A stretch of DNA of 64,000 bases, from positions 404 to 64,403 of the forward strand of contig JAFSAU010000004.1 in the NCBI GenBank assembly GCA_017442155.1, in the 5' to 3' direction. Position numbers and translations under genes: made by a program. The DNA is from Clostridia bacterium (GTDB lineage: Bacteria; Bacillota; Clostridia; UMGS1883; UMGS1540). Below are positions 16,309 to 50,696 of the stretch, one piece after another. The notes beneath the pieces are model-generated. The model was given only the letters and a program-made list of their open reading frames with translations, ran no database searches and was not told where the DNA came from. Each line of letters begins with the position of its first letter. Within the stretch, counting starts at the first letter, position 1.

Positions 16309-17211
16309 ATGAACAAAGGAAAGGCGAGGGCAGACGTGACAAAACTGGAATATATTTATGGAGACACCCCGGCTTTTATCGTGAAATATGAAGAAGCAAC
16401 CTATGAAAAATGGCACTTTCATGATTTCTGGGAAATTCAGTATGTATCGCAGGGACACGGCTTTCATCTGATTGGGGATGAAAAAATTGAGGTGAAGGCG
16501 GGTGACGTGTTCCTGACAAGCTTTGGCGTGAATCACTGTTTTGTTTCATGCGATGCCAGGGAACCGCTTGTGCTGACGAACTGCGTGTTTCGCCGGGAGA
16601 CGTTTGAAGAGCTTCCGCTGAATCTGGAGGATTTCACAGAGCTTGGAAGTGACATTCTGTATACCTTTGCATTCAAGGATGATACAGAGGTATCGTCATA
16701 CATTCGTGTTTACGATAAGGATTTGCGGATACGAAAGCTTCTGGAGCTGATGGAAGCGGAAAATGCGATGCAGGATTCCGGCTTCCAGGATATGCTCAGG
16801 CTTTACCTTTCGGAACTGATTATTCTGTTTTTGCGTTTGCATAAGGAACAGTCGAAGGAAAATGCGTCGATTGACGCACAGCGGGAGTACATCGGGGAGG
16901 TGCTTGAATATATCAAATACAATTATACGCAGAAAATTTCCTTAAAACAGCTGGCGGCCATTGCAACAATCAGCCCGAATCATCTTTGCTCCGTTTTTAA
17001 AAATATGACGGGGAAAACCGTTTCGGAATACATTCAGGAGATGCGGCTGCAGAATATCTGCCGGATGCTTCGGGAAACGGATGTGTCTTTTGAAAAAATT
17101 GCAAATGAAAATGGATATGAAGGGCGTAATTTCCTGCAGAAACTGTTTATAAAAACGTATGGAATGACGCCGGGCGAGTACCGGAAAAACGTCCGGGAAA
17201 AACAGGATTGA
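16309..17211 (+). CDS. AraC-family transcriptional regulator (cupin sensor + HTH), module A
   Basis: N-terminal cupin-like region (HFHDFWEIQYVSQGHG), C-terminal dual HTH (LKQLAAIATISPNHLCSVFK...GMTPGEYR). The start is uncertain. ATG 16309 lacks an RBS, whereas GTG 16336 follows GAGGG with a 5-nt spacer. Confidence 0.8.
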   Translation: MNKGKARADVTKLEYIYGDTPAFIVKYEEATYEKWHFHDFWEIQYVSQGHGFHLIGDEKIEVKAGDVFLTSFGVNHCFVSCDAREPLVLTNCVFRRETFEELPLNLEDFTELGSDILYTFAFKDDTEVSSYIRVYDKDLRIRKLLELMEAENAMQDSGFQDMLRLYLSELIILFLRLHKEQSKENASIDAQREYIGEVLEYIKYNYTQKISLKQLAAIATISPNHLCSVFKNMTGKTVSEYIQEMRLQNICRMLRETDVSFEKIANENGYEGRNFLQKLFIKTYGMTPGEYRKNVREKQD

Positions 17212-17231
17212 GAAGCACCGCGTGCTTTTTA
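17212..17231 (+). terminator. weak hairpin between the AraC gene and the module A operon
   Basis: GAAGCAC-CGC-GTGCTT stem of 6-7 bp followed by TTTTTAAT. This may be a leaky terminator or attenuator. Confidence 0.3.
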
Positions 17232-17258
17232 ATAAAAAATTTAGGAGGAAGAACAACA

Positions 17259-18356
17259 ATGAAACACACAAAAAGGAATCTGGCACTTGGGCTATGTATG
17301 CTGCTTTTATGCATGGCTTTCGCACCCCTGGGTGTCGCGGCAGAAAGCACAAATCTTATTGAAAACGGTAGTATGGATGAAGAAGACTGGTATTACACGC
17401 AGGGGCCGGCTGGATGGAGCCTGAACAAAACGGCGGATGTCTGGAGCAAAACGGTGGAAGAACATGGGAAATATCTTGAAAACGGTGGCACACAGAAAAC
17501 GGCTTACATTTACCATCAGACCGGCGGTATCAATAACAGCCCCTATGTGGAAATTGATGCAGTAACGTATGCAAGCGGCGATGGAGATCCGAAAATCAAG
17601 CTTCCCTGGATTGAGGATATAGAAGGGGATACATGGTATACTCTCACATTCTATTCTCAGAGACTGGATAATACACTTGCACCTAAGGTGGCGATGACTT
17701 TTGCAAGTGATGATGCACTAACTGTCGGAAGCTTGAATACTAGTAGCGGTGCGATTGGAACAGGACTTCTGGGGTATAATTACAAACCAAACACCTGGCT
17801 GAAATATCAGATTCGTTTTAAGGCACCCTCCTGGGCCTGGAAGGTACAGATGACTTTTGGCGGGATTATGAAAACAAGCGGAACCAAGGTGAAGATTGCA
17901 TACGATAATTTTTCATTATGCAAAGATGAAAGCGGTATAGAATATATGGAACCGGCAATCAGCGGTGTTGGTGGTGCATCTGCCTGGCCGTACACTTCTT
18001 TGACTCTTACTGATGATAACACAACGGTTATGCCAATTGCTGTTTTATACGGACGGATTCCGTATACCGTGCGTCCGGCTGACGGTAAGGTGATGGCAGC
18101 ATTTTACTACAATGCAGGCGCGAGTACAGAAAATGTGACTTGTATTTCTGCGGTGTATAAGAAAACGGCCGAAGGGACTACGCTGGTAAACTGTTATATA
18201 GACGAAATGGTCCGTGCGGCCGAAATCAACCGCCTGGAGCAGGAAATCACGTTGCCCGAAGCGGCAGAAGGCGTGGAATACACGGTGAAGTCCTACATCT
18301 GGAGCAGTATGACGGGACTTGCACCCTTAGGGGTTTCAAACAGCTTCACCTATTAA
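17259..18356 (+). CDS. secreted CBM-only protein (module A, gene 1)
   Basis: ATG 17259 follows AGGAGGA. Sec signal peptide MKHTKRNLALGLCMLLLCMAFAPLGVAAES, then NLIENGSMD, the entry motif of CBM4/9/22-like jelly rolls. The C-terminal roughly 110 aa end VKSYIWSSMTGLAPL. No barrel domain. 365 aa. Confidence 0.7.
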   Translation: MKHTKRNLALGLCMLLLCMAFAPLGVAAESTNLIENGSMDEEDWYYTQGPAGWSLNKTADVWSKTVEEHGKYLENGGTQKTAYIYHQTGGINNSPYVEIDAVTYASGDGDPKIKLPWIEDIEGDTWYTLTFYSQRLDNTLAPKVAMTFASDDALTVGSLNTSSGAIGTGLLGYNYKPNTWLKYQIRFKAPSWAWKVQMTFGGIMKTSGTKVKIAYDNFSLCKDESGIEYMEPAISGVGGASAWPYTSLTLTDDNTTVMPIAVLYGRIPYTVRPADGKVMAAFYYNAGASTENVTCISAVYKKTAEGTTLVNCYIDEMVRAAEINRLEQEITLPEAAEGVEYTVKSYIWSSMTGLAPLGVSNSFTY

Positions 18357-18378
18357 GCCTGTGAAAAAAGAGGGAACA

Positions 18379-21300
18379 ATGAGACGAAAGAAATGCTGTG
18401 CGGTACTTCTGGTGCTTTTGTGTATCGCACTTTGCCTGCCGGGACTGCCGGCAGGCGCGGCAGACAAGACGGAGCTTCTGGATAACGGCGGCTTTGAACG
18501 CACCTTTTCCGACGGCACGCCCGGCGCATGGATTTTTTCGGACAAAGAGAACACCGGCGTACAAAGTACGGGCGGATATGAAAATTCGGCATATCTTCAG
18601 CTTGGCGGCACTTCTTCAAATTACGCCCTGCAGAGTATTGCCGGCATCCGGGGTGGAGGGGCTTACACCTTTTCAGCCTATATCCGCACAGCATCACCGG
18701 CAAAGGCAATTTTGAAAATTGAGTGGTATGCACGAGAAAACGGAGCCTTGTCGGCTATTTCTCCGACAGAGTATGTTTTTTCGGATGCATCATCCGCATG
18801 GAAAACACTTTCCATACAGGTGACCGCGCCGGACGGTGCGGTATATGCCCGCTTGCTTATCCGGAAAATGGGAAGCGGTGCTGTTTGCTGGGATGCAGTC
18901 AGCCTTGTGGGAGCCTATGAAAAACAGATGGTAGCTTCCACTGATTTTAAGCCTCCGGTCCAGGGGGCAGTAGAAGCCTTTCGCAACGGCGGTTTCGAGG
19001 AAATAAAGGATGGTGAGGCACTGCGCTGGGATAAAAGCAGCGGATTAAATTTTTCTCTCGAAACCGTCCGTCCCTTTAGCGGGACCACAAGCTTCCTGAT
19101 TGAGGGGAATGATACGAATGAAAAGCCATGGATACGGCAGGTATATACCGGGGCCGAGGGCGGGAGTATGTATCAGCTTTCCTGCTGGGTGGCTTCCTAC
19201 ATAAAAGAAGGGTATTTTTCCTTTAAATTGGAGTTTTATAACAGTACTGCCTGCTCTGCGGCAACGGCCATTTCCAACGTAGTCAGCGGTGGATGTCTGA
19301 ATACCGACGGTGTATGGAAGCAGGTAGTAATTCCTATCCGCACGCCGGACACCTGTAAATCCATTGCAGTATACCCCCGGTTTTACGGCGGTGTGGGGAG
19401 GGTGTATATCGACGAGCTTTCCCTGTATCAGACAGAGAAAAACAGTCCCCTTTCTTTAAACACAGATGCTATATTTTATTACAGTGACCGCACGGAGGAT
19501 GGCGTGGCCACTGTGGAAAGTACGCCCTTTTATACAGATGAAAACATTACAGAAGTTGCGTTTTCACTCCTCGATGCGACCGGAATAGCAAAAAAGACGG
19601 AAACAGTTTCCTATACGAATCAAAAAGCAAATTTTTCATTTCCCCTTTCTCTCCTGGAAACGGAAAAGGTGGAATATGCGGTGCACGCAAAGGCAATGAA
19701 TTCGGGGGGGAGTGTGGTCTGGGAAAAGAGGGCACCTGTGTACAAATATCCAAGACCGGGTATGCTGGATAAGCAGGGAAACTGCTATGTAGACGGAGAA
19801 ATTTTCACGCCTGTCATTTCCTACCATCATCACCCGCGGGACTACGATAAAGCCGCGGCCATGGGCGTGAATGTGGTCCAGTCCTACGGAATGACAGGAA
19901 CAGCTATCCTGGATGAAGCGGCGAAATATAATATTAAGGTCTTAATGATTTTATATGAGGGAATGAAGCCGGCAGGACATCCGGAAAATATAGAAAAGAC
20001 CCGGGCACTTGTCAGTGAGGTCAAGGACCATCCGGCACTATTCGGCTATGCAGTGATGGATGAGCCGTATTATAACTATACGGCCCCGGAGGATTGGCTT
20101 TTTTCTTCGTATAAAACGATTCGCGATATTGATTCTTACCATCCCGTGTATGTATGCGAAAACACCCGGGAGCATCTGGCACAGTCGCAGAAATATGTGG
20201 ATGTGCTTGGCATTGACCCCTATATTGCTGATAAAAGTGACGAGGTCTTGACATTGGTATATGATGAAACGGTGTTTGCTGTAGAAAATACCGAGCCGGG
20301 TAAGCCAGTGTATGCGCTGCTACAGGCCTTTGACTTTAAAGGCTATTTCCCCACGGGGGAAGAACTTCGCCATCAGATGTATCAGGCATTTATGGGTGGC
20401 GCAAAGGGCGTAGGATACTTTGCTTTTAATGACAGTAAGGACGGAAAAAAACTGAGCGAGACAGAGCTTTGGAATAGCATTTGTGATTTTACAGCCAATG
20501 AATTGGAACCGGCTATATACGGGTTTGCGCAGGATACGGCTTGTACGAAACAATTGGGGACAAACGTAGATGCGGCCTGGTGGAACAAAGGAGAGGAAAC
20601 GACGCTGCTTCTTCTCAATCACACAGACAGTACGCAAACGGGTACACTGTCACTTGCGGGACTTACGGAAGGGGCCGACGTGGCAGAGATTCTGGGCGAT
20701 GGAATCGGAACACTCAACGGTACGTCCTTTACATATCACATCGGAGGAAGTGCGGCGGTACGGGTTACCCTTTGTAAAACCGATACGCCCTGGAACGGAA
20801 ATCTGTTTACCGGCAGTAGTGATGCCGAGCTTTCAATCATAGAGAAAACAGTTTATAATCTTCGGGAGGGCGAACGGTATTCCCTGCATTTTCAGGCAAA
20901 GTGCAGTGACCCGACAAAGGCACCGCGGCTTCGTTTGACCTTTTCAAATACGGCAAACACGGCATCTTCTACGGCATTTTCTTCCCAGGCAATTCTGAGC
21001 GGGGCTGATGCAGTTCCGTCTTTTGGGACTACGGACTGGCAGTCGTATGAAATCACCTTCCGGGTGCCGGAGGGTGCCGACACGGTAACGCTTCTTCTGG
21101 GAAGTGTGTCCGGCGGCACATATAAAATGGCAAAGCTTTTTCGGGAGACAAAGGCTATGACCTTCTATACCGGTGCAGAAGTAATGGAAACGAAAGCTTC
21201 GGTGACGGAAACCGTCAACAATACCGGTAGAACAAAAACCTATTATCTTGCGGCTGTCCGTGGAGAACAGACGGACAAGGCGGCAGAAGCGACACAAATA

Positions 21301-21540
21301 CTTTACCGAAAGCACGAGGCCGAGGAAAATATGCTTATTTCTGTCCCGCTCTATAAAAGTGTGGTTTCGGAAAGGGCAGAGCTTCTTTCCGTAGAACTCC
21401 GTCAGCTTGAAAAGGGAGCATATGCCTGTATTTTGCAGCCTGTGCCGACAGGTGTGGAATCTTTCCTGCAAAAAATATTTTTGTTTTCAATGACGGGCCT
21501 ACGACCGCTTTCGGATGCAAAAACATATGAATTCAACTGA
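18379..21540 (+). CDS. secreted CBM-CBM-sandwich-(beta/alpha)8-like-barrel protein without SLH (module A, gene 2)
   Basis: ATG 18379 follows AGAGGGA. Signal peptide MRRKKCCAVLLVLLCIALCLPGLPAGAAD. It has LLDNGGFE and FRNGGFEE CBM-like modules. Barrel motifs are PVISYHH, GVNVVQ, MDEPYYN, IDPYIA, LLQAFDF and GYFAF. An extra C-terminal CBM-like module is present, and the protein ends QKIFLFSMTGLRPL. 1053 aa. Confidence 0.75.
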   Translation: MRRKKCCAVLLVLLCIALCLPGLPAGAADKTELLDNGGFERTFSDGTPGAWIFSDKENTGVQSTGGYENSAYLQLGGTSSNYALQSIAGIRGGGAYTFSAYIRTASPAKAILKIEWYARENGALSAISPTEYVFSDASSAWKTLSIQVTAPDGAVYARLLIRKMGSGAVCWDAVSLVGAYEKQMVASTDFKPPVQGAVEAFRNGGFEEIKDGEALRWDKSSGLNFSLETVRPFSGTTSFLIEGNDTNEKPWIRQVYTGAEGGSMYQLSCWVASYIKEGYFSFKLEFYNSTACSAATAISNVVSGGCLNTDGVWKQVVIPIRTPDTCKSIAVYPRFYGGVGRVYIDELSLYQTEKNSPLSLNTDAIFYYSDRTEDGVATVESTPFYTDENITEVAFSLLDATGIAKKTETVSYTNQKANFSFPLSLLETEKVEYAVHAKAMNSGGSVVWEKRAPVYKYPRPGMLDKQGNCYVDGEIFTPVISYHHHPRDYDKAAAMGVNVVQSYGMTGTAILDEAAKYNIKVLMILYEGMKPAGHPENIEKTRALVSEVKDHPALFGYAVMDEPYYNYTAPEDWLFSSYKTIRDIDSYHPVYVCENTREHLAQSQKYVDVLGIDPYIADKSDEVLTLVYDETVFAVENTEPGKPVYALLQAFDFKGYFPTGEELRHQMYQAFMGGAKGVGYFAFNDSKDGKKLSETELWNSICDFTANELEPAIYGFAQDTACTKQLGTNVDAAWWNKGEETTLLLLNHTDSTQTGTLSLAGLTEGADVAEILGDGIGTLNGTSFTYHIGGSAAVRVTLCKTDTPWNGNLFTGSSDAELSIIEKTVYNLREGERYSLHFQAKCSDPTKAPRLRLTFSNTANTASSTAFSSQAILSGADAVPSFGTTDWQSYEITFRVPEGADTVTLLLGSVSGGTYKMAKLFRETKAMTFYTGAEVMETKASVTETVNNTGRTKTYYLAAVRGEQTDKAAEATQILYRKHEAEENMLISVPLYKSVVSERAELLSVELRQLEKGAYACILQPVPTGVESFLQKIFLFSMTGLRPLSDAKTYEFN

Positions 21541-21562
21541 AAACGATAGGATGGAGAGGATT

Positions 21563-24500
21563 ATGATGAATAAAAGAATTACTGCGATATGTTTATTATG
21601 TGTGCTTCTTTTGGGCTGTATCGGTCTCTCGGCAGGTGCGGAGGAAGCAAAAGAAAATCTTTTGCGAAACGGTGATATGGAAAAGGTCAGCACCAACGGA
21701 CACCCCCTAATCTGGACTGAGGTGGAAGAGATTAAGTCTACCACGGAGTATCACCGCTCCGGCAACTACGCCATGAAAATTGAGAAGGAATACACACAGC
21801 AGAGTGTTTACGGTATTATCCCCGGAGAAGAATATCAGCTGGAAGTCTGGTATCTTGCCGCCGGTGGCGTACCTCGCATCAAGGGCTCCTGGTGGATTGA
21901 CCACGAGGATGGAACACGGGATGCGGCCGGAGGCGACTATCTTCCGGTGGCGGAGAACAGCGGCCGTCCGCAAGGAAAGTGGACAAAGTTTTCCTATACA
22001 CTTACGGCGCCGGAGAACGTAACACGGTTAACCATTATGCTGCGGTTTGCCCTTGGCGAGGCTGTCGCAATTGTGGATGACGTTTCGGTAACGGGTCACA
22101 CGGAAGGTGCGGGGGATGCAGCACTTTCCGAAGACCAGATTTTTCCGACCGTTGAGGACACAGGGGAGATTATTGAAAACGGAAGTTTTGAAAAGCTTAC
22201 GGATGGAAAGCCGGAAGGTGCCTGGGGTGCCTATAAGAAAAACTTTGTCGGGAATGAGTATGTATCCATTGAAAATTTCGGGCATACCGGAGACAAATCT
22301 GCGAGGCTTACGGCGGCGAAAACCGGGACAAATCCCTGGATAAATTATGCGATTCCTGTAGAGGAGGGAGCCAGATACCAGGTTACGCTGTGGATTTTCA
22401 CAGAAATAAAATCCGGTTATTATTCCATGAAGCTGGAGTTTTATAACAGTGAGGAATGTACAGCGGAAACGAGTGTGGGCTATTCCCAGTCCTGGCAACA
22501 TAAGAAATCCGGCGGACGTTGGAAGCAGGTCAGTGTAGAGTTTATTGCACCGGCCACAACGAAAACGACGAAAATTTACCCGCGTCTGTACGGAGCAGGA
22601 TATGTATATATAGACGACGTATCCTGTCGGCAGATTGTCGAACAGCCGATATTTGATATGGATACCGACCAGGTATTCTACTATTCCGATTATAAGCCGA
22701 AGGGCGTTGCTACCCTGACGAAGAAATATTACAGCGGCGAAGAAATCGGGGATGCAAAATTTTATTTTCTGGACGGAGAGACCGTATTGGCAGAGGAAAC
22801 CATGCCATTTGCCGGTGAGAGTGTGGAATTTCAATATTCCATGAAGCTGTTTGAAGAAAAACAGAAGGAGTATACAATTCGTGCAGAGGTATTAAAGCCG
22901 GACGGAACCGTCTACCGGCAGTATAATCAGCCGGTATATAAATACGACCGACCGTCCAATATCAACGAAAAAGGTGAAATTATTGTAGATGGCGAGGTGT
23001 TCCATCCCATCTTTTCCTACCATCATCCGGAGGCAAATTTTGAAGAGGCCAAGGAAATGGGCGTAAACACCATTCAGCAGTATGCTCTGGAATATCTGGG
23101 CAAGGAATATCTGGATTACTGCCACGAGCACGGTCTCAAGGTACTCGTGATGATGTATGCGGATATGCGCCCGCCGGCACATCCGGAGGTAAAGCAGGCA
23201 CGTCTTGACAAGCTGGCGTATTGTAAGGGACACCCGGCTGTTCTGGGCTATGCACTGATGGATGAACCCTACTATAATATTAACGACCCCGAGGATTTAC
23301 TTCGTGAGTCGTATAAAATGCTTCGCGACTATGACATGGAAAAACCTGTGTTTATGGTGGATGAAGCTTCCGAGAACCAGGATATTATCGGTAAATACTG
23401 CGACATTGTGGCCGTTGACCCATATATTGCAAGCCGCGGAAAGGATGCTGTAGGCACACAGCCTACCTATGGTGTATCTCTGGCAGACAAAGGCGGAGAT
23501 TATAATAAGCCCGTATTTTCACTTCTGCAGGCCTTCGATTTCCAGGAATATTGGCCAACGGACATGGAACTGAAGAACATGGTGTACCAGAACTTCTTAG
23601 CCGGTGCATATTCTACGGGATACTTTGCTTTTGACAGGGCGAAGGACGGAAAACCGCTGGATGAAACAGAAATCTGGGATATTATTGTTGAAATGGGTGA
23701 AAAGGATATCCCTGAGCTGTTTGATGTTTTTGTTGACCATGCGTATCCGGTTGTCTTTGAACAGCGAACAGATGTAGCCTGGATTTACGGATATTTTAAG
23801 GAAGGAAACATTCACATTATCTGCCTCAATAAGACCCAGAAGGACCAGGTGGTTTCCATTCCCCTTGTAAGCTTTGACGAAAAGGTACATGTAAACGGGT
23901 TTACGGCACAAATTCATAGAGAAAAGACTACCTCTGTTACCGAGGAAGGCGATACACTTACAGTAAGCATGGGTCCGGTTGAAGTCGTAAATTGCGTGGT
24001 GACGCCAAAGGAAGCAATAGATGAAAGTCTTCTGACTACCATGCGGTTTGTGGATTTGTATGACTATGCCTGGGCAAGAAATCAGATTGAAATGCTGGCC
24101 GCAAAGGAGCTGGTTAATTACCCGACCTATAAGAGCTTCCAGCCGGGACGTAACATCACCCGCGGCGAGTTCGCACTCTTCCTGGTACGAACCTTAGGTC
24201 TTGAGGGTGAAACAGCAGAAAACTTTGTCGATGTGGAGCCGGATGCGGAATATGCGAAAGAGCTTGCCATCGGTCGTGCCGCAGGTATCTTAAACGGTAT
24301 TGGCGATAACAAGTATAATCCGGAGGCAGAAATTACAAGACAGGACATGATGACCATTATTGCCCGCGGCATGAAGCTTCTGGAAACAGAAGCGGATTTG
24401 ACCGGCTTCAGTGATACAGGCCTCATTGCCGACTATGCACTGGAAGGCGTTCGGGCAATGGTAGGCACAGGGCTTGTAAAGGGGAATGCAGACGGCACCT

Positions 24501-24568: not shown

Positions 24569-24589
24569 TGTAAACGGAGGAAACCAAAA

Positions 24590-33071: not shown

Positions 33072-33083
33072 GGAGGAAGAAAA

Positions 33084-40105: not shown

Positions 40106-40218
40106 GAATATTGTGATGGGAGAATTGTCGGATTTCCGACGGGCTTTCAAACCGATTTTGTGCAAATGCTTCAAAAGAAAGAAGCTTGCAAATAAAAAAC
40201 AGAAAAGGAGAATGACAC

Positions 40219-41772: not shown

Positions 41773-44592
41773 ATGAAAATCGGGCGAAAAATAGGTAGCT
41801 TTTGCATGGCACTTTTGCTGCTGACGGGGGCAGGGCTTTCCCTGCCCGCACAGTCGGCAGAATCGGAGACCTACCTCTGGCCCCGGGGCATCGGGGCCGG
41901 AGGCAGTACGGAAGCGTACATCACCCGGAAGGGCGAACACGCGGAAGCCACCCGGGAGGAAGTGCACAGCGGCAATTACGCGGTTAAGGTATGGAACAAG
42001 AACACAAACCGTACCCGCATATGGGCCGAGGCAGAGGGACTGACAACGGGGAGGACGTATACGGCCACAGTATTTGTAAAGTTTGCGGCCGGTACCTTTA
42101 CGCAGAATCGCGGCGTATATTTATATGCGATGGCAGACCATACAAAGGGTGCATCCCTGTCAATAAAAAGCAAATTCTGCAAAAGTGCGGCAGACTGGAC
42201 ACAGCTTTCTGTCACGTTTACCCTGCCGGAAAACAGCGGCCGCGTAACCCTTTGCATGGATGCCCAGCCCATAGAAAACGGATATGCCGTATACTGGGAC
42301 GACCTGACGCTTTCTGGCTATAGCGGAGACTTAAATGGTGGATTTGAAACGGTGGACGAATGGGAGTATATCCGGGAGGACGAGACGGTTATGCCCGAGG
42401 ATGGAGAGAGTATACTCCCGAACGGAAATTTTGAGTCGGATTGTAAAACAGCGGGAACGGCTTCGCGTTGGACGGCCTATAAAGGCTGGTCGGATTCCAA
42501 TTCCTTTGTCACGATTTCCGATTCGGTTTTCCGCGCGGAAGATACCGGTTTGTCTACGGGACATTCCCTCCGGCTTTCCGCTAAGGAGGCGGACGGGGAT
42601 GCGAATCCCTGGTGCAGTAAGATGCTGTCGGTGACGCCGCTTACCGAATATGTGGTTTCTGCCTATGTACGCGCGGATGCTTTAGTAGGGGATGCGAGGG
42701 CAAGAATCAAGTTTGAATGTTACACGGAGCCGAGGGGCAGCAGTGCAAAGGCCGGCGCGGATTTTAATTCGGAGGAGATTGGCGCGGTAACAAACGGAGA
42801 ATGGGTACAGCTCATCCAGACCTTTTATACCCGTGAAAACTGCTACGGCGTAGCGGTAATGCCCCGGCTGTACGGTGCAGGGGAAGTGTACTTCGACGAT
42901 ATTGCGGTAAAGCAGAAGAGTGCGCGGGCACAGTTCCATTTTTCGACGGACGGGGTGTATTATTACACGGATATGTCCCGGGGCGTGGCTACTGCCACGG
43001 CACTGCGTGACCTTTCTTATGCGGGCAAAACCGTTTCCTTCAGTCTTTCTGCAAACGGTGAAATAGTGCAAAAAGCGGAAAACGTGCCCTTTACAGACGG
43101 AAAAGCAGAATTTACCTATTCGCTGACAGCACTCAGAAAGAACACGCCGTATACACTCACGGCAGTGCTTCTAAGCGGCACCGCAGAAGTAGACCGGCAG
43201 GAAACGGAAATTTACAGGATGGAACGCCCCGCCTATCTCCGGAAGGACGGGGTATATTTGAAAAACAGGGAGACACCGTTTTACCCCGTAATCGCATATC
43301 ACGTCTCCCGTGAGGATTACGGGAAAATGCCGGAAGCCGGTATCAATGTGGTGCAGGCCACCTTTACAGATTATACGGCCCTTCGGAATTCTCTGGATGC
43401 GGCGGAAAAAGAGGGAATCATGGTGCTGGCGGCACTGTATTCCGGGATGGAAATGCCAACCTCTCCCGGGAAATATGATATTTCCTATGAAGCCATTACC
43501 CGCCTCCGGAAGCATCCGGCACTGTATGGCTGGATGGTGATGGATGAGCCGTTTGCGAATTATCCGCACCACGAGGCGGAAAAGGGCCTTCGGGAAGCAT
43601 ATCTTTTCATACGCAGTCTTGACCCGGACCATCCGGTGTATGTGCTGGACAACCAGGCAATCACCTTTAGCGTTACGGCAAAATACGCGGATATACTGGC
43701 AACGGACCCGTATACGGCCGCAAAGCACGACCGTGCAAATTACGTATACAACCAGATGGCGGCGGCAAAAGAGGCGGCAGGCGATAAACCGACCTATGCG
43801 ATTTTGCAGGCGTTTCGCTACAGCGGTGTATTTCCTACCGGAGCGGAGCTTCGCTCGGCCATTTATCAGGCCTTTATGGCAGATGCATCGGCGGTAGGGT
43901 ATTACGCCATTGGGGATGCGGATGGAGCACTGGAGCTGTATGATACGCCGCTCTGGGAAAGCATGTGTTCTTATGTAGAACCCGATTTTAAGGTCCTCTA
44001 TGAAGGAACGGGCGGCGAGACGGAGAGCGGTACGGGGTACCGCATGAAACCGTACACGCTAAATGGTGTTACGTATCTTGCGGTACAGAATACAAAGAGT
44101 ACCGCGGCAGACGTGGGCTATACCTATGCGGAAACCGTGGCGGCACTTCCGGCTATGGGGGCATCGGAGGGAGAATGCATCCATACGGGAACGGTATATA
44201 CAGCGGACGAAGGGGCTCTTTCTGTACCGCTCCAGGCGTGCGGCACGGGTCTGTATGCATTGTATACGGGTGAGGAGGAAGCCGCTGTTTTGTGCAGACA
44301 AAACGGAAAGCTGACATTTTCACCGGGTACAGGCAGTATGGAACTGGAGTTCCGCTATAAAAACAGCGGAACGCAGCAGGAGGAATATGCCTTTTATCTT
44401 GCGACATATGCGGATGGAGAAAAAGGAAAAGAACTGATAGACCTTGCAAGCACAAAGCACACAGTTGCTTCCGGCGAAACCGTCCGGGAAAGGTTTCCGG
44501 CAGAATGCGGAAGCGGCCAGACGGTATGTGCTATGTTCTGGAAAGCAGGCCTTGTGCCGCAGATGAAGACATTTTATAATGGAGGTTTATGA
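41773..44592 (+). CDS. secreted CBM-CBM-barrel protein without SLH (module B, gene 2)
   Basis: Signal peptide MKIGRKIGSFCMALLLLTGAGLSLPAQSA. Barrel motifs are PVIAYH, GINVVQ, MDEPFAN, TDPYTA, ILQAFRY and GYYAI. The C-terminus ends VCAMFWKAGLVPQ. 939 aa. Confidence 0.75.
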   Translation: MKIGRKIGSFCMALLLLTGAGLSLPAQSAESETYLWPRGIGAGGSTEAYITRKGEHAEATREEVHSGNYAVKVWNKNTNRTRIWAEAEGLTTGRTYTATVFVKFAAGTFTQNRGVYLYAMADHTKGASLSIKSKFCKSAADWTQLSVTFTLPENSGRVTLCMDAQPIENGYAVYWDDLTLSGYSGDLNGGFETVDEWEYIREDETVMPEDGESILPNGNFESDCKTAGTASRWTAYKGWSDSNSFVTISDSVFRAEDTGLSTGHSLRLSAKEADGDANPWCSKMLSVTPLTEYVVSAYVRADALVGDARARIKFECYTEPRGSSAKAGADFNSEEIGAVTNGEWVQLIQTFYTRENCYGVAVMPRLYGAGEVYFDDIAVKQKSARAQFHFSTDGVYYYTDMSRGVATATALRDLSYAGKTVSFSLSANGEIVQKAENVPFTDGKAEFTYSLTALRKNTPYTLTAVLLSGTAEVDRQETEIYRMERPAYLRKDGVYLKNRETPFYPVIAYHVSREDYGKMPEAGINVVQATFTDYTALRNSLDAAEKEGIMVLAALYSGMEMPTSPGKYDISYEAITRLRKHPALYGWMVMDEPFANYPHHEAEKGLREAYLFIRSLDPDHPVYVLDNQAITFSVTAKYADILATDPYTAAKHDRANYVYNQMAAAKEAAGDKPTYAILQAFRYSGVFPTGAELRSAIYQAFMADASAVGYYAIGDADGALELYDTPLWESMCSYVEPDFKVLYEGTGGETESGTGYRMKPYTLNGVTYLAVQNTKSTAADVGYTYAETVAALPAMGASEGECIHTGTVYTADEGALSVPLQACGTGLYALYTGEEEAAVLCRQNGKLTFSPGTGSMELEFRYKNSGTQQEEYAFYLATYADGEKGKELIDLASTKHTVASGETVRERFPAECGSGQTVCAMFWKAGLVPQMKTFYNGGL

Positions 44593-47500
44593 TGAAACGT
44601 TTTGTTGCTTTGGGACTTATAATACTGCTGGTGATAACGGCCATACCGGTGCTGGCAGAAAATATGTATAATTATACCTGGGCGGAAGGCTGGGATGTGG
44701 GAACCTATTCGTATGTGACGGAAAAGGGTACCCATGCGTTCGTAACCACGGAGCAGGCGCATGAGGGAACATATTCCATGAAAATCCGGAACAAGGAAAA
44801 GGATCTGACACGTGTCTGGACGAAGATTACCGGTCTGGAACCCGGAAAAACCTATACGGCCAGCGTATATGTGAAAATTATAGGCGCACTGCCGGAGGGA
44901 GCGGGCGCACTGCTTCGCGTTACGGCAGATTATAAAGACGGCGCAGGGAAGGCATGGAAAGCGTCTGAACGCATTTCCGGTACGCAAAAACGCTGGAAGG
45001 AGCTTACGGCAAAGTTTACTGTGCCGGCAGGCATGACGGAAGCGGCAGTTTGTCTGGACACAGGCAATGTAACAGATGATAATTTTGTATATTGGGATTC
45101 TCTCACAGTAGAAGGTGTGGAGGTTACAAACGGCAGCTTTGAATCCATCATTGAAATTAAGCCCGAAGTAATTGAAGTTCCGGAAGGGGCAGAAAACCTG
45201 ATAGAAAACGGCGGCTTTGAGGCCGTGGACGGCGTAGCTGCCGTGGGATGGAATGCATATAAGGACTGGAAAGACAATCCTTACGTTTCCGTAACAACGG
45301 AAAAAGCCCATTCCGGTAGTCGCAGTATAAAACTTACCAATGACGGCACGGGAACAAACCCCTGGGTAAATATAAAGGTACAGGTAGAGCCCGGTGTGGA
45401 CTACCTGATTACCATGTGGGTATGGTGCGAAAAGCTTCCGTCGGGAAAGGATACCCGGATTAAGTTTGAGCCGTATTCCGACCCGGTGGAATTTACGGCT
45501 AAAACGGCACTGGACGGTTCCTTTAACTCGGCACCAGTAACCAATACCTTCGGAGAATGGATGAAGATTCAGCAGAAGTTTTCGTCCAGCGTAGAGTGTC
45601 AGGGTGTAGCAATTTATCCCCGTTTATACAGCGGCTCCGGTGCTTGCTATTACGATGATGTGGAAATGTATAAAATCACAGAGCCGAGAAAAATATTTGC
45701 CACAACAAACTGGGGCATTTACTATCCCGATTTTGAGGAAGGATATGCCACAGTAACACCCTATACCGGTTTTGAAACCGGGGAAACTACGGTCGGGTTT
45801 GAATTCTTAGACGGCGACAAGGTGCTTCTTTCCCAGGAAGCCCGCCCCTTCCAGGATGGACAGGTGCAGTTCTTTTACCCGGTATCGCTTCTTTCGGAGC
45901 TGACGAAAGAATACGTTGTCCGGGCAACGCTCTATGATATAGACGGAAACGTTCTGGAAAGTATGGATTGCCCTATCTATAAATACGAACGGTCTCCGTA
46001 TCTTAGGGAGGATGGCGTTTTCCTGAAAAATAAGACCGAACCTTTTTATCCGGTCCTTGCTTACCATGCTTATGGCAAGGAACATTTCCCCTATCTTGCA
46101 GAAGGCGGTATTAACGCGATTCAGGTGCATTTTACAAGCATAGGTGAACTTGACAGCATCATGAAAAATGTGGTAGAATATAATGTGATGGCCATGATTG
46201 CGCTGTACCGCGGCGGCGGTTTTGCAGGAGACCCGGAAAATCAGGAAATGAATGCGGAAGCGATTACAAAATATAAGGATCATCCAAACGTAATGGGCTG
46301 GATGATTCAGGATGAACCCTTTAATAAGGGCGAGTATTTTGACGTTTTAAAGCGTCTTCGTGAATCCTATACATTCATTAAAAGATATGATCCGGAACAT
46401 CCGGTGTACTGTCTGGATGCCTCTGTCGGCACGTTTGTGCAAACGGCAAAATGGGTGGATATCTTAACGACAGACCCCTATCCCACCTCAAAACGCGACC
46501 CGGCTACATTTGTCGCCACTCGCTGTGCGGCACTTCGGGAAGCAACCCAGGGCGAAAAGCCGGGCTGGTCTGTGGTGCAGGCTTATGAGGGCGGTATATG
46601 GCCTACAGGCGATCAGTACAGAAGCAGTCTCTATCAGTCGCTTTTCGGCGGCGCAAAGGGCCTGGGACTGTATGCGGTCAGCGATGCGCGGTATATTGAC
46701 GGCGTAAAGACGGAGCTTTACAAAACAGACCTTTGGCCGGCACTCAAGGAATTTGCCGAGGTGGATTTCCAGATGGCAAACGAGGTGTTTGTCAGTGCAG
46801 AGATTCCCACATTCAATGAAGTGCGGGGCGAAAAATACTGGTACAGAAGCTGGGAAAAGGATGGAAAGCTCTATCTGATTATTTTAAATCGGGATAACGA
46901 TAATGAAACAGAGGCAGAAATTCAGCTCACTTCCTTTGATGGTAGCGTAACTGTGGGTGGTTTCTCCGGCAAAATTATTGCAGGAGGAGAAGGAGAGGCC
47001 AGCGGAAACGGGGTTTTAAAAGCAAAACTCCAGCCCTGCGCGGCACAGCTCTGGGAACTGGAGCTTTCCACGCCCGTGGATTTCAGCGTAAGTGCACCGT
47101 ACACCTATTTTGATATGGATGCATACGGTTGGGCAAGAAGTGCGGCAGAGCTGATGAAGGAAAAGGGCATAACCTACGACCCGGTGTCCTATGCCTTCCG
47201 CCCCGGTGAGAAAATCACCCGCGGTGACCTGGCAATGTTCCTGGTCCGTTCTTTAGGTCTTACGGGCGAGGGCGGGGAAAACTTTGCCGACGTACCGGCA
47301 GAGGCCCACTATGCCAAAGAGCTTGCCATCGGAAAAGCGGCCGGCATCTTAAACGGCGTGGGCGACAATAAGTTTAATCCGGAAGCTGAAATCACACGCC
47401 AGGATATGATGACAATTATATCCCGCGGTATGGCTCTGCAAGGCGAAACAGATGTGATGGCCTTTTCTGACAGCGGTCTTATTGCAGACTATGCCCTGCC

Positions 47501-47624
47501 CCACGTAAAGGCTATGATTTCTTCGGGCCTTGTAAAAGGAAATGCAGACGGAACCCTAAATCCGCTGGGGAACACAACTCGTGCGGAAGCGGCTGTCATT
47601 ATGCAGCGGATACTAAAAAGGTAG
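44589..47624 (+). CDS. secreted CBM-CBM-barrel protein with 3 SLH repeats (module B, gene 3)
   Basis: The ATG overlaps the upstream stop (ATGA) and follows GGAGG. Signal peptide MMKRFVALGLIILLVITAIPVLA. Barrel motifs are PVLAYH, GINAIQ, QDEPFNK, TDPYPT, VVQAYEGGIWPT and GLYAV. 1011 aa. Confidence 0.8.
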   Translation: MMKRFVALGLIILLVITAIPVLAENMYNYTWAEGWDVGTYSYVTEKGTHAFVTTEQAHEGTYSMKIRNKEKDLTRVWTKITGLEPGKTYTASVYVKIIGALPEGAGALLRVTADYKDGAGKAWKASERISGTQKRWKELTAKFTVPAGMTEAAVCLDTGNVTDDNFVYWDSLTVEGVEVTNGSFESIIEIKPEVIEVPEGAENLIENGGFEAVDGVAAVGWNAYKDWKDNPYVSVTTEKAHSGSRSIKLTNDGTGTNPWVNIKVQVEPGVDYLITMWVWCEKLPSGKDTRIKFEPYSDPVEFTAKTALDGSFNSAPVTNTFGEWMKIQQKFSSSVECQGVAIYPRLYSGSGACYYDDVEMYKITEPRKIFATTNWGIYYPDFEEGYATVTPYTGFETGETTVGFEFLDGDKVLLSQEARPFQDGQVQFFYPVSLLSELTKEYVVRATLYDIDGNVLESMDCPIYKYERSPYLREDGVFLKNKTEPFYPVLAYHAYGKEHFPYLAEGGINAIQVHFTSIGELDSIMKNVVEYNVMAMIALYRGGGFAGDPENQEMNAEAITKYKDHPNVMGWMIQDEPFNKGEYFDVLKRLRESYTFIKRYDPEHPVYCLDASVGTFVQTAKWVDILTTDPYPTSKRDPATFVATRCAALREATQGEKPGWSVVQAYEGGIWPTGDQYRSSLYQSLFGGAKGLGLYAVSDARYIDGVKTELYKTDLWPALKEFAEVDFQMANEVFVSAEIPTFNEVRGEKYWYRSWEKDGKLYLIILNRDNDNETEAEIQLTSFDGSVTVGGFSGKIIAGGEGEASGNGVLKAKLQPCAAQLWELELSTPVDFSVSAPYTYFDMDAYGWARSAAELMKEKGITYDPVSYAFRPGEKITRGDLAMFLVRSLGLTGEGGENFADVPAEAHYAKELAIGKAAGILNGVGDNKFNPEAEITRQDMMTIISRGMALQGETDVMAFSDSGLIADYALPHVKAMISSGLVKGNADGTLNPLGNTTRAEAAVIMQRILKR
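47100..47621 (+). other. three SLH repeats
   Basis: YTYFDMDAYGWARSAAELM..., FADVPAEAHYAKELAIGKAAGILNG... and FSDSGLIADYALPHVKAMISSGLVKG...TRAEAAVIMQRIL. Confidence 0.85.
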
Positions 47625-47639
47625 GAAAGGAAGTTTGGG

Positions 47640-50600
47640 ATGAAAAAGATTGCATCGGTTGTAGTAACGGTATTTTTGCTGACAACACTTCTTATTCCGG
47701 CACAGGCAGACCAGTTTAACTACACCTGGGCGGAAGGCTGGGATGTGGGAACTTACAGCTATACTACGCAGAAAGGCGTGGAAGCAGAGGTGACAAAAGA
47801 GGAAGCCAAGGAGGGTGAATACTCTCTGAAAATCTGGAATAAGCTGGATAAAAACACACGGGTCTGGGCGCAGGCAACCGGCCTCGAGCCGGGAAAATCC
47901 TATACAGCCAGTGCGTTTATAAAAATCGCTGGAGAGCTCCCCGATAAAGCGGGTGCCATCCTGCGGGTTTCGCCGGCCTATACAGATGGTGCCGGAAAAG
48001 CAATCGGGTATTCCAGCCGTATTTCCACAACAATGAAACGCTGGACGGAGCTTACGGCCACCTTCACAGTGCCTGCGGACACTACAGAGCTGGCAATTTG
48101 CCTGGATACGGGCATTGTGGAGAAAGGAAATGCTGTATACTGGGACGAGGTAAAAATTAAAAATACAGAAGTCGATATAAACGGCAGCTTTGAAAAAATT
48201 ATTGAAATCAAACCGGAAGAGATCAATATTCCCGAGGGCAATGAAAATCTCATTATTGACAGTAGCTTCGAAGAGCATGACGGAACGGCCATGGAAAAAT
48301 GGAACGCCTATCAGGGTTGGAAAGCGGATAATCCCTTCGTATCCATTACAACAGAAAAAGTACGTACAGGCAAAGCCGCTATAAAAATTGAAAGTACGGA
48401 AAGCGGGAAAAATCCGTGGGTAAGCCAGGGGATTCCGGTACAGCCGGGTACAGAGTATCTGGTTTCGGTGTGGGCGTATGTAGAAATGCTGGATAAGAGC
48501 GTAACAGCATCCTGCGGCCCGCGCATGAAGATAGAGCAGTATTCCAGCAATGAGGAGCGTACTTCCAAGACAGCACTGGACGGTGCTGTTTCCTCCAGTC
48601 TGTATTCCCAGGAAACAGACGGCTGGGTACAGCTTACACAAAAGGTTTCCTCCGGTATTGAGTGCTACAGTCTTGCGATTTATTACCGGTTTTACGGGGC
48701 AGGCGTCGTGTATTTTGACGACGCGGAGGTATACCAGCTGACGGAACCGACTAAACTGAGCCTGGAAACGGATTGGGGCGTATATTATCCCGACTTTAAA
48801 ACGGGTGTTGCAAAGGCTTCGGCGAATCCCGGGCTTAAAGAAGAAAACACCAGCGTTTCCTTTGCATTTAAAGATGGCAGTACTGTTCTGAAGGAACAGG
48901 AAGCACGCCCGCTTGCGGAGGAAGGAGTAGAATTTGCGTTTGAAACTGCACTGATGGCAGAAATGGCAAAGAATTATACTGTTTCTGCGACACTTTATGA
49001 TACAAATGGGAATGTGCTGGAGGTGCAGGAAAAGAACGTGTTTATGTTCGACCGTTCTCCTTATATCCGTTCCGACGGTGTGTATCTGAAAAATAAAACA
49101 ACACCGTTTTATCCGGTATTTGCCTATCACGCACACGGCGAAAAACATGCACCGTATCTTGCCGAGGCAGGTATTAACACCATTCAGGTTACGTTTGCCG
49201 GTAATGTAGAAACGCTTGGGAATCTCCTGGATGTTTGTGCGGAATATGATATTATGGCACTGGTGGGACTGTATTCAGGCATGAAGTTCGCGGCAGACCC
49301 TGCGAATATCGCGGTAACAAAAGAAGCTGTGGAAAAATTCAAGGACCATCCCAATGTATTTGGATGGATGGTTATGGATGAGCCGTTTATTCATGGGGAG
49401 TATAATGAGGTTGTACGCCTCCTTTGCGAGTCCTATTCCTTAATCCGGAGCATTGATCCGGAGCATCCGGTGTATACACTGGATAATGCCCACGGCACCT
49501 TCTATGAAACGAGTAAGTATGTGGATATTCTGGCGACAGACCCGTATCCCACCTCAAAGCGCGACCCGGCTACCTGGATTGCCACACAAACGGTGCGTCT
49601 CCGTGATGCGGCACGCGGTCAGAAGCCGATTTATTCCCTGGTGCAGGCCTACGAAGGCGGCATCTGGCCCACAGCCGATCAGCTCCGGAGCAGCCTCTAT
49701 CAGTCCCTTTTTGAAGGTGCAGATGCCATCGGATATTACGCCGTCGGCGATGCGAGAAAAATTGACGGGGTAACGACGCAGCTGTATAACACGGACCTCT
49801 GGCCGGCCGTGAAAGAGTTTAAAGCTGTGGACCTCGCAGACGATATGGCCTTCAAAGTGTTTGCCGGAAATGAAATTCCCACCTTTAACGATGTTCGGAA
49901 TGAACAATACTGGTACAGAAGCTGGGAAAAGGACGGCAAGCTCTACGTTGTGATTTTAAATCGCAGCAACGAAGAAACACGGGAAGCAGAGATTAAGCTG
50001 ACATCCTTTGACGGAAGCGTAACGGTCGGCAGCTTCTCCGGCAAAATTATTGCAGGCGGTGAAGGGGAAGATAGCGGAAACGGCGTTTTAAAGGCAACGC
50101 TGCAGCCCTGCGCGGCACAGCTCTGGGAGCTGGAGCTGTCCACACCTGTGGATTTCAGTGTCTCCATGCCGTTCACCTATTTTGACTTAGGTGACTATGG
50201 CTGGGCACGAGATGCGGCAGAGCTGATGAAGGAAAAGGGTATCACCTATGACCCGAGTCAGTATTATTACAGACCCGGCGAGAAGATTACCCGCGGCGAT
50301 TTGGCTATGTTCCTGGTCCGTTCTTTAGGTCTTGCGGGCGCGGAAGCGGAAAACTTTGACGATGTACCGGCAGATGCACACTACGCGAAAGATATTGCCA
50401 TAGGGAAAGCGGCCGGCATCTTAAACGGCGTGGGGGACAATAAGTTTAATCCCCAGGCCGAAATTACGCGGCAGGATATGATGACCATTATATCCCGTGG
50501 TATGGCTCTGACGGGAGAGACAGATTTGGCAGCCTTTTCTGACAGCAGCCTTATTGCAGAGTATGCACTTTCGCATGTGAAAGCAATGATTTCTTCGGGA

Positions 50601-50696
50601 CTTGTAAAAGGAAATGCAGACGGGACCTTAAATCCGTTGGGGAACACAACCCGCGCGGAAGCGGCTGTCATTATGCAGCGCATATTAAATCAGTAA
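47640..50696 (+). CDS. secreted CBM-CBM-barrel protein with 3 SLH repeats (module B, gene 4)
   Basis: RBS AAAGGAAG. Signal peptide MKKIASVVVTVFLLTTLLIPAQA. Barrel motifs are PVFAYH, GINTIQ, MDEPFIH, TDPYPT, LVQAYEGGIWPT and GYYAV. 1018 aa. Confidence 0.8.
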   Translation: MKKIASVVVTVFLLTTLLIPAQADQFNYTWAEGWDVGTYSYTTQKGVEAEVTKEEAKEGEYSLKIWNKLDKNTRVWAQATGLEPGKSYTASAFIKIAGELPDKAGAILRVSPAYTDGAGKAIGYSSRISTTMKRWTELTATFTVPADTTELAICLDTGIVEKGNAVYWDEVKIKNTEVDINGSFEKIIEIKPEEINIPEGNENLIIDSSFEEHDGTAMEKWNAYQGWKADNPFVSITTEKVRTGKAAIKIESTESGKNPWVSQGIPVQPGTEYLVSVWAYVEMLDKSVTASCGPRMKIEQYSSNEERTSKTALDGAVSSSLYSQETDGWVQLTQKVSSGIECYSLAIYYRFYGAGVVYFDDAEVYQLTEPTKLSLETDWGVYYPDFKTGVAKASANPGLKEENTSVSFAFKDGSTVLKEQEARPLAEEGVEFAFETALMAEMAKNYTVSATLYDTNGNVLEVQEKNVFMFDRSPYIRSDGVYLKNKTTPFYPVFAYHAHGEKHAPYLAEAGINTIQVTFAGNVETLGNLLDVCAEYDIMALVGLYSGMKFAADPANIAVTKEAVEKFKDHPNVFGWMVMDEPFIHGEYNEVVRLLCESYSLIRSIDPEHPVYTLDNAHGTFYETSKYVDILATDPYPTSKRDPATWIATQTVRLRDAARGQKPIYSLVQAYEGGIWPTADQLRSSLYQSLFEGADAIGYYAVGDARKIDGVTTQLYNTDLWPAVKEFKAVDLADDMAFKVFAGNEIPTFNDVRNEQYWYRSWEKDGKLYVVILNRSNEETREAEIKLTSFDGSVTVGSFSGKIIAGGEGEDSGNGVLKATLQPCAAQLWELELSTPVDFSVSMPFTYFDLGDYGWARDAAELMKEKGITYDPSQYYYRPGEKITRGDLAMFLVRSLGLAGAEAENFDDVPADAHYAKDIAIGKAAGILNGVGDNKFNPQAEITRQDMMTIISRGMALTGETDLAAFSDSSLIAEYALSHVKAMISSGLVKGNADGTLNPLGNTTRAEAAVIMQRILNQ
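50172..50693 (+). other. three SLH repeats
   Basis: 174 codons collinear with 47100-47621. Confidence 0.85.

Follow-up and report, generated by a model that had tools for sequence, protein, structure and literature searches.

SLH-anchored multimodular polysaccharidases include Xyn10B of Caldicellulosiruptor, in which the modules are arranged as CBM22-GH10-CBM9-SLH (PMC6556019), and ChiW of Paenibacillus, in which they are arranged as SLH-CBM-Ig-GH18x2 (PMC5132251), where CBM denotes a carbohydrate-binding module, GH a glycoside hydrolase family, Ig an immunoglobulin-like domain, and SLH the S-layer homology domain. At the level of gene clusters, the Gram-positive polysaccharide utilization locus (gpPUL) as defined by Sheridan et al. 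(2016) requires a polysaccharide-degrading enzyme, a regulator, and a carbohydrate transport system (PMC5320581). In this study, a stretch of 64,000 nucleotides (nt) from a Clostridia bacterium (GenBank assembly GCA_017442155.1, contig JAFSAU010000004.1, positions 404 to 64,403 of the forward strand), referred to below as the window, was analyzed for two gene modules, A (A1 to A5) and B (B1 to B4). Both lie next to a gene for an AraC-type regulator and encode a CBM-only protein (A1 and B1) together with larger paralogs containing CBMs and a predicted (β/α)8 barrel (A2 to A4 and B2 to B4). As a whole, the locus is probably best explained as two separately AraC-controlled operons for glycan degradation in an uncultured Oscillospiraceae-type gut bacterium, with GH-A-like barrels and duplications specific to each module. 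The operon architecture is ordinary in kind; the main interest lies in a catalytic family with an unusual active site and in its conserved CBM-only partner.

Organization of the modules and their products

Both modules have the appearance of units linked to an AraC gene, in which closely packed genes for secreted proteins run in one direction (Table 1). The eight open reading frames (ORFs) that a first-pass annotation had placed in modules A and B were all reproduced by the ORF listing at the same coordinates and on the forward strand, and its AraC-type regulators beside both modules were supported by Pfam matches to HTH_18, HTH_AraC, and AraC_binding. AraC_A, the regulator of module A, combines a cupin sugar-binding domain with a helix-turn-helix domain and has an orthologue at the same position in three related genomes, L020, L021, and L022. 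AraC_B is divergent from B1, with an AT-rich intergenic region of 210 nt (40009-40218) between the two genes. The gaps inside the modules, previously described as short, measured 22, 22, and 21 nt from A1 to A4 and 6, -4 (an ATGA overlap), and 15 nt from B1 to B4, and a Shine-Dalgarno-like sequence was present at most gene starts of both modules.

Module A had been taken to end at 27604 with A4, but the fifth gene, A5, begins no more than 30 nt after A4 and precedes the first strong forward-strand terminator. When read from the TTG at 27611, its product has 1,025 amino acids (aa). No signal peptide and no Pfam or PDB sequence match were found for A5, and its similarity to the NCBIfam alpha-L-rhamnosidase BT4145 model (GH106-type; E = 9.5e-7) is far below the cut-off of that model. 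A5 is possibly a distant GH106-like glycosidase; it probably acts as a glycosidase at a later stage and represents another unassigned family.

The N termini of all eight of the originally described proteins have the layout of Sec-type signal peptides, as had been predicted, with 2 to 4 Lys/Arg residues, a 12-residue hydrophobic core (mean Kyte-Doolittle value of 2.2 to 3.5), and small-x-small cleavage sites. End-to-end alignment of the six large proteins gave the common order CBM-CBM-Ig-barrel-β-sandwich, after which come either 3 SLH repeats or a different tail; in A2, the C terminus consists of the β-sandwich plus a tail of ∼250 aa instead of SLH. The SLH domains of A3, A4, B3, and B4 were matched by Pfam with E = 2e-23 to 6e-30 (A4, 6e-30). 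Three SLH stretches each were called in A3 and A4 and two each in B3 and B4, the third of B3 and B4 being seen in the alignment, so that Pfam and alignment together agree with the three terminal repeats proposed for these four proteins. The SLH enzymes would accordingly be displayed on the cell wall. CBM_4_9 (PF02018) was found above the gathering score in A2, A3, B2, B3, and B4, with 45.6 to 69.7 bits against a cut-off of 25.9 (E = 5e-12 for A2 and 1e-11 for B2). A4 gave no CBM_4_9 match in Pfam at E <= 0.01, and its CBMs are 39 to 52% identical to those of A3. The sequence motifs listed in the first-pass annotation (SYHH, DEP, LLQAF[D/E]F, VQAYEGGIWPT, and Y-x-W-[A/P]-x-G) were all present. 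A cellulosome-like assembly was considered and rejected, as a Pfam search of the eight proteins detected neither dockerins nor cohesins.

The description of A1 and B1 as CBM-only proteins needed qualification. B1 consists of two CBM-like modules and a C-terminal β-sandwich tail; its CBM_4_9 score of 22.3 bits (E = 1.8e-4) lies just below the Pfam cut-off of 25.9, and BLAST matched it to the CBM region of B3 (E = 4e-13) and B4 (E = 4e-11). A1 had no Pfam hit at all, and its CBM label comes from an hhalign match to CBM1, the first CBM of the paralogs (81% probability), and from a weak fold match. Its AlphaFold2 (AF2) model is all-β with medium confidence (pLDDT 64.5) and weakly matches CBM4-2 in Foldseek (TMt 0.66, E = 1.7e-3). 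The protein has a CBM-like β-sandwich in its N-terminal part and, in its C-terminal part, a second β-sandwich akin to the A2 tail, with 25% identity between A1 residues 106-365 and A2 residues 813-1052 (BLAST E = 5e-7). The orthologues of A1 are 46 to 67% identical. A1, A2, B1, and B2, the four proteins that lack SLH, had a short C-terminal motif in common in the alignment and thus possibly have one type of tail module.

Fold, relatives, and active site of the barrel

The barrel is predicted to be a distant GH2/GH158-like TIM barrel of clan GH-A and to represent a large uncharacterized family. The AF2 model of A3 shows a (β/α)8 barrel followed by a C-terminal β-sandwich (pLDDT 85.5, pTM 0.88). 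In Foldseek searches against the PDB, it matched only glycosidases composed of a barrel plus a β-sandwich (GH13, GH39, GH51, and GH30), with E values of ∼1e-12 and TM scores of 0.5 to 0.6. As the TM scores were no higher, there appears to be no close solved relative, and no specific family can be taken from the structure. Among PDB profile hits, the best were GH158 (E = 1e-14) and GH2 β-glucuronidases (E = 1e-9), while GH5 and GH42 were weaker.

No Pfam or NCBIfam model matched the barrels of the window or of the four distant homologues tested; the best Pfam E values, obtained for some members only and all below the curated threshold, were 0.005 for GH2 (Glyco_hydro_2_C), 0.0009 for GH42, and 0.009 for GH5. 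The family has no PDB member, and the precomputed Pfam field of its homologues lists no catalytic-domain family. In public records, these homologues, from Ruminococcaceae, Oscillospiraceae, and Clostridia metagenome-assembled genomes (MAGs), are named “hypothetical protein” or “S-layer homology domain-containing protein.” The earlier statement that the system is not a recognized, characterized one therefore appears to hold for the enzyme family. The family stands outside the families of Pfam, NCBIfam, and PDB and is set apart by these only, so that a recent CAZy family number may exist. An exhaustive search returned 12,612 cluster representatives at E <= 1e-3 and 2,077 at E <= 1e-30 (clusters at 50% identity), most of which were CBM-Ig-barrel proteins of ∼620 to 650 aa. 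The apparent rarity of the family in word-indexed searches, which had returned 4 to 7 proteins, was thereby recognized as an artefact of the word index.

For the active site, the barrel was aligned by hhalign with Escherichia coli β-glucuronidase (GUS) at 93% probability, the alignment ending before β7. In A3 numbering, D115 corresponds to GUS N412, the residue before the acid/base; E116 to the acid/base E413; D167 to N466, which is not catalytic; and Y169 to Y468, the conserved β6 Tyr. Q204 is the predicted equivalent of the nucleophile E504, a placement suggested by spacing (35 residues from Y169 to Q204 compared to 36 from GUS Y468 to E504), by a KP-strand motif (KPVFSLLQ in A3 and KPIIITE in GUS), and by its position at the end of the predicted β7. 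Across 174 diverse members, D115, E116, and Y169 were 100% conserved and D139, D162, D167, and P213 were 98 to 99% conserved (D167, 99%), while the Q204 position was occupied by Gln in 164/174 (94%) and by Glu in 3/174. The family thus has an invariant Asp where clan GH-A has Asn before the acid/base, with E116 retained at the end of β4. Of the hallmarks of clan GH-A, the barrel and the β4 acid/base Glu were found and the β7 nucleophile Glu was not. Lacking this nucleophile and scoring below every family threshold, the barrel was not filed under GH2 or GH158. Literature searches for a clan GH-A family with Gln at the nucleophile site or with substrate assistance gave no relevant result.

Duplication history

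Two histories had been put forward for the shared gene order of the modules: duplication of an old four-gene block, followed by divergence and within-module homogenization, or parallel expansion. To place the paralogs, barrel trees were built by neighbor joining (NJ) together with homologues from other genomes. In the first tree, the module A barrels grouped as (A2,(A3,A4)) with 82% support, and B2 grouped with B3/B4 with 98% support; when sequences from L020 to L022 were added, the A and B clades were recovered at 88% and 89%, respectively. At a finer level, A2 was joined with its orthologues of L020, L021, and L022 at 100% bootstrap support, and A3 was sister to all A4 orthologues, also at 100%. 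B2 paired with L004_6035 at 99 to 100%, and B3, B4, and L004_8584 formed a clade at 100% (L004 is the Oscillospiraceae MAG SIG447). Since A2 groups with A3/A4 and B2 with B3/B4, A2 is not the positional orthologue of B2. The split into SLH and non-SLH enzymes, or the gain or loss of SLH, would then have occurred separately in each lineage.

It is very improbable that one ancestral block composed of a binder, a free enzyme, and two anchored enzymes was duplicated once and then reshaped by divergence and intramodule gene conversion. The gene order, which is equal in both modules, would agree with such an event, as would the Ig, C-terminal β-sandwich, and SLH segments, in which A3/A4 are nearer to B3/B4 than to A2. 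The barrel groupings (82 to 88% for A2 with A3/A4 and 89 to 98% for B2 with B3/B4) contradict it, as do the absence of A3 from three relatives and the situation of module B, which occupies an indel when compared with L020 and whose genes have separate orthologues in SIG447. Homogenization fared no better. Identity within modules is 33 to 48%, far too low for active homogenization. Within modules, the SLH segments are 85 to 88% identical at the protein level, but their fraction of identical codons at conserved residues was 0.47 to 0.70, compared to a background of 0.38 to 0.55; with codon identity this near to background, recent gene conversion was rejected. The similarity of the SLH segments is likely due to purifying selection for binding the same wall polymer.

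Of the two proposed histories, parallel expansion is therefore the one favored by the data. The modules appear to represent separate subfamilies that each grew through tandem duplications of their own, and their shared order would reflect a conserved core of regulator, binder, free enzyme, and anchored enzyme with no copied four-gene block. Some observations do not fit this picture well. Paralogs had been described in the first-pass annotation as more alike within than between modules, and this was borne out only by the barrel and CBM1. When the Ig, C-terminal β-sandwich, and SLH segments were compared, the SLH paralogs of A and B were nearer to one another than to the non-SLH paralog of their own module. 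In addition, deep NJ nodes were weak (11 to 49%), and short domains gave mixed results. There may have been an older shared ancestor of the SLH type, with domain shuffling.

Conservation of the modules in related genomes

The order AraC-A1 (363 to 369 aa)-A2 (1,052 to 1,053 aa)-single SLH paralog was found in all of L020, L021, and L022, with A5 (1,018 aa) next in L020 and L021; the L022 contig stops within the SLH gene. Protein identity between the window and L020 was 84% for AraC, 66% for A1, 77% for A2, 80% for A4, and 75% for A5. A3 had no orthologue in L020, and its DNA (21563-24568) was precisely missing from all three relatives. By this comparison, A3 is a strain-level extra copy, found in this genome only, and the ancestral module A would have had one SLH gene plus A5. 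At the nucleotide level, the left flank, AraC_A, and the start of A1 were 97% identical to L022, A2 was 85%, and A4 was 76% (window 15035-27217), with no long blastn alignment for the remainder of A1. In L020, the E1 and E3 dehydrogenases of the right flank were 98 to 99% identical at the protein level. The genes for the surface proteins have thus diverged, or been exchanged, at a far higher rate than the sequences around them, and they look like a hot spot of diversification or recombination between strains.

Module B lies within a variable segment of ∼23.4 kb that holds genes for LacI, SIS, GFO/IDH/MocA, β-lactamase-fold, and NAGLU-like proteins, AraC_B, module B, GDSL, GH28, and carbohydrate esterase family 15 (CE15) and that is absent at this position in L020. 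There, the A5 orthologue is directly followed by the orthologue of window 54167-54973 (88% aa identity), then by a short nonhomologous stretch and the E1 dehydrogenase (99% aa identity); the GH78 gene of the window is replaced by unrelated genes. In the lineage of L020, the sole relative sequenced across the A5/module B junction, modules A and B were therefore not ancestral neighbors. The order of module B was conserved in L004. An AraC gene on the opposite strand, ∼2 kb upstream, precedes, in this order, a gene similar to B1 (27% identity), the B2 orthologue, which lacks SLH (L004_6035-8746, 40%), and the B4 orthologue, which carries SLH (L004_8584-11826, 65%).

A locus scan with the six window barrels recovered family members in 19 loci, from gut and rumen Clostridia MAGs plus one Paenibacillus. 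Two paralogs were present in 7/19 loci and were mostly adjacent, and AraC genes were nearby in most loci, with an upstream position and opposite orientation relative to the barrel genes in L001, L002, L004, L005, L006, L010, L014, and L018. A CBM-only gene was located immediately 5' of a barrel gene in L001, L004, L005, L007, L010, L013, and L014, being B1-like in L004, L001, L005, and L013. These arrangements point to a recurrent core in about ten Clostridia loci, consisting of a regulator, a CBM-only protein, and an SLH-anchored enzyme with or without a non-SLH enzyme. The view that the combination is a functional unit and not a random accumulation of paralogs thus gained support, since it recurs in L020 to L022 (module A), in L004 (module B), and more loosely in L001, L005, L007, L010, L013, and L014. 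The proposed order of one binder, one free enzyme, and two anchored enzymes stood as to its core, which is kept in relatives, and failed as to the exact count; the order is partly accidental, with A3 as an extra gene and A5 present in addition.

Pairs of GFO/IDH/MocA and AP_endonuc_2 (xylose-isomerase-like TIM barrel) genes were observed 3' of the barrel genes in two unrelated MAG loci, L011 (4488-6380) and L014 (11651-13585). Such pairs are known in oxidative (3-keto) glycoside cleavage pathways. The neighborhoods of the distant members P0003, P0005, and P0002 contained mostly genes without a Pfam hit and gave no clue to the substrate. In L006 (JAQXGO010000017.1), identical ORFs at 5020-8307 and 8400-11687 are mirrored around ∼8350 as a perfect inverted duplication, which is most likely an assembly artefact; the second copy was left out of the trees.

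Module boundaries and neighboring genes

The GDSL, GH28, and CE15 genes 3' of B4 are separated by gaps of 54, 14, and 10 nt, counted from B4 onward. A GC-rich stem-loop without a T-tract lies just after the B4 stop and could be a transcript-stabilizing or processing element or a weak terminator separating module B from these three genes. No forward-strand terminator was found among them, and from their spacing they may be cotranscribed with module B. An identical B4 protein was present on 10 metagenome contigs, with the order B3-B4-GDSL-GH28 on the two contigs shown.

Between the modules, the NAGLU-like protein covers only part of the Pfam model, and the ORFs at 32040-33071 and 33840-34508 had no family hit. 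A 20-bp perfect bidirectional terminator hairpin was observed at 39015-39062. The region of the window is an island rich in carbohydrate-active enzyme genes with mixed substrate signatures.

Long antisense ORFs (416 to 882 aa) were also noted at 47613-49148 (-), 30796-32046 (-), and 57491-60139 (+). The first two were not counted as genes and were taken for spurious shadows of coding sequence on the other strand. At 57.5 to 60.1 kb, the E1 dehydrogenase on the reverse strand is 99% conserved in L020, compared to 85% for the forward-strand ORF, which is therefore also a shadow. Such spurious antisense ORFs could mislead automated gene calling.

Table 1. Positions of modules A and B, their regulatory elements, and neighboring features in the window
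Feature	Position	Strand	Description
AraC_A	16309-17211	+	AraC-type regulator of module A; Pfam HTH_18, HTH_AraC, AraC_binding, Cupin_2
Small hairpin with T-run	~17214-17232		Between AraC_A and A1
A1	17259-18356	+	365 aa, secreted, noncatalytic
A2	18379-21540	+	1053 aa, secreted, without SLH
A3	21563-24568	+	1001 aa, 3xSLH
A3 codons for predicted catalytic site	D115-E116, 23261-23266; D167/Y169, 23417-23425; Q204, 23528-23530	+	
A4	24590-27604	+	1004 aa, conserved SLH-anchored enzyme of module A
A5	27635-30688	+	Fifth gene of module A; probable start, ORF open from TTG 27611; ~1018 aa, cytoplasmic
Intrinsic-terminator-like hairpin	30698-30733	+	16 bp plus T-run; first strong one 3' of module A
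Variable segment	30700-54100		~23.4 kb; absent in L020 at this position (L020 16100-16200)
Intermodule genes	32040-39017		SIS-domain protein, GFO/IDH/MocA oxidoreductase, β-lactamase-fold, divergent NAGLU-like (GH89-like)
AraC_B	39157-40008	-	AraC-type regulator of module B; Pfam hits
B1	40219-41766	+	515 aa, secreted, noncatalytic
B2	41773-44592	+	939 aa, secreted, without SLH
B3	44589-47624	+	1011 aa, SLH-anchored; start overlaps B2 stop (ATGA)
B4	47640-50696	+	1018 aa, SLH-anchored
Stem-loop	~50704-50733		GC-rich, 13 bp, no T-tract; just after B4 stop; A-run follows on + strand
GDSL esterase, GH28, and CE15 genes	50751-54068	+	Pfam
CE15 glucuronoyl esterase	53001-54068	+	
GH92 α-mannosidase	1252-3474	-	
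Weak GH43-like ORF	8656-9582	+	
GH78 rhamnosidase	55051-57105	-	

Proposed function and alternative explanations

In the proposed model, each operon would export a small CBM-only protein and multimodular enzymes built from two CBMs (4/9/22-like), an Ig-like domain, the (β/α)8 barrel, and a β-sandwich. Some enzymes would be tethered to the wall by three SLH repeats, and others would carry a C-terminal β-sandwich tail in common with the CBM-only protein. The latter and the non-SLH enzyme could have one polymer as their shared target, working either as free proteins or bound by way of the common tail. A polysaccharide would be cleaved at the cell surface; the chemistry would most likely be either substrate assistance by a 2-acetamido sugar or attack by a non-canonical nucleophile, and A5, or elsewhere the GFO/IDH/MocA and AP_endonuc_2 enzymes, would process imported products.

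An Asp-Glu pair on β4, an invariant Tyr, and the lack of a carboxylate at the nucleophile slot form the neighboring-group signature of GH18, GH20, GH84, and GH85. By analogy with these families, neighboring-group (substrate-assisted) catalysis is tentatively considered for the barrel, as a reading that falls short of being probable. Several results count against this part of the model and against the degradative reading more generally. None of GH18, GH20, GH84, GH85, and GH123 was among the PDB sequence or profile hits of the barrel; given this lack of similarity, the substrate-assisted reading comes down to three residues. Pfam detected no transporter domain in any gene of 16.3 to 30.7 kb or 39.2 to 54.1 kb. 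The genomic context is mixed, with GH92, the NAGLU-like protein, and a heparinase II/III-like protein of L020 pointing to host glycans and GH28, CE15, GH78, and the GH106-like A5 pointing to pectin or gum-type glycans.

Slightly lower odds than for substrate assistance are given to a non-canonical nucleophile, for which D167 is a candidate. In the corresponding alternative, which is rather unlikely, the barrels would be glycosidases of the classical kind, retaining or inverting, with another carboxylate in use, for example D167 (β6) together with E116 (β4), and would act on ordinary, non-acetamido polysaccharides of plants or microbes without substrate assistance. The β6 plus β4 carboxylate pair of clan GH-D α-glycosidases provides a model for D167/E116. 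The 99% conservation of D167 and its location at the C-terminal end of β6 argue for this alternative, as do the neighboring GH28, CE15, GH78, and GH106-like A5 and the substrates of the closest families, which for GH158 and GH2 are β-glucans and uronides. However, D167 aligns with the noncatalytic Asn N466 of GUS, and the strictly invariant D-E (β4) and Y (β6) are the residues established for neighboring-group enzymes. A role in the envelope is improbable, whether as adhesins or lectins with an inactivated barrel or as remodelers of the cell's own wall polymer, capsule, or S-layer glycan; for the barrel itself, an inactive or lectin role appears still more doubtful. The missing canonical nucleophile, the SLH anchoring, and the lack of a transporter in either module would fit an envelope role, and so would the identity of the surface genes to L022 (76 to 85%, compared to 97% for the flanks at the nucleotide level), a pattern typical of exposed envelope proteins. 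Yet D-E-Y does not vary in any of the 174 diverse members, which speaks for catalysis. AraC regulators of the cupin sugar-binding type usually belong to catabolic operons, and the multiple CBMs and the cytoplasmic, glycosidase-like A5 fit a degradative pathway.

Glycan degradation by the two operons is thus retained as the preferred explanation. Its most far-reaching form is speculative and has the odds against it: a new, very large GH family would have arisen from the clan GH-A scaffold, with D-E...Y plus Gln replacing N-E...E and with substrate assistance invented independently, and would work in uncultured gut Clostridia within a conserved three-part surface system, made up of a CBM-only partner, a released enzyme, and an SLH-anchored enzyme, on a glycan that is possibly of host or microbial origin and rich in N-acetylhexosamine (HexNAc).

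Significance

Public metagenomes contain at least 2,000 clusters of the barrel family at 50% identity, and in ruminant and other gut Clostridia, the family forms multicopy, quickly diverging arrays. Once its substrate is assigned, thousands of surface proteins now called “hypothetical” would be annotated, and a glycan niche of Oscillospiraceae could come to light. Neighboring-group participation at the Asp-Glu/Tyr/Gln site, if it does occur, would be a clear change of mechanism within the clan GH-A fold, and if the three-part system does act on a HexNAc-rich glycan, its target would be one with no degradative system yet known in Firmicutes. The pairing with a CBM-only protein could serve as a model for substrate capture by Gram-positive bacteria without Sus-like or cellulosomal scaffolds.

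Comparison with known systems

GH2 β-glucuronidases and GH158 endo-β-1,3-glucanases are the sole families with detectable sequence similarity to the barrel. The features in common are the (β/α)8 barrel, the motif HP...x(N/D)EP on β4 with the acid/base Glu, and (N/D)-x-Y on β6. In contrast to these families, the similarity ends before β7, and the barrel has Gln in place of the nucleophile Glu and Asp in place of the Asn before the acid/base. With GH18, GH20, GH84, GH85, and GH123, the barrel shares, as a pattern only, an adjacent carboxylate pair (or Asn-Glu) at the end of β4, a conserved Tyr, and the lack of an enzymic nucleophile; it differs from them in its GH-A-like scaffold, and the top 50 fold matches belonged to other glycosidase families.

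At the level of whole proteins, the enzymes resemble Xyn10B and ChiW in having a Sec signal, tandem β-sandwich CBMs, Ig-like linkers, a catalytic barrel, and three SLH repeats. They differ in their unassigned catalytic family, their occurrence as arrays of paralogs, and the presence of a dedicated CBM-only partner and a non-SLH sibling. Like gpPULs, the modules are presumably substrate-specific, strain-variable loci in which an AraC regulator, with a predicted role, is clustered with genes for secreted enzymes that would act on glycans; unlike gpPULs, they have no transporter gene within either of the two regions searched.

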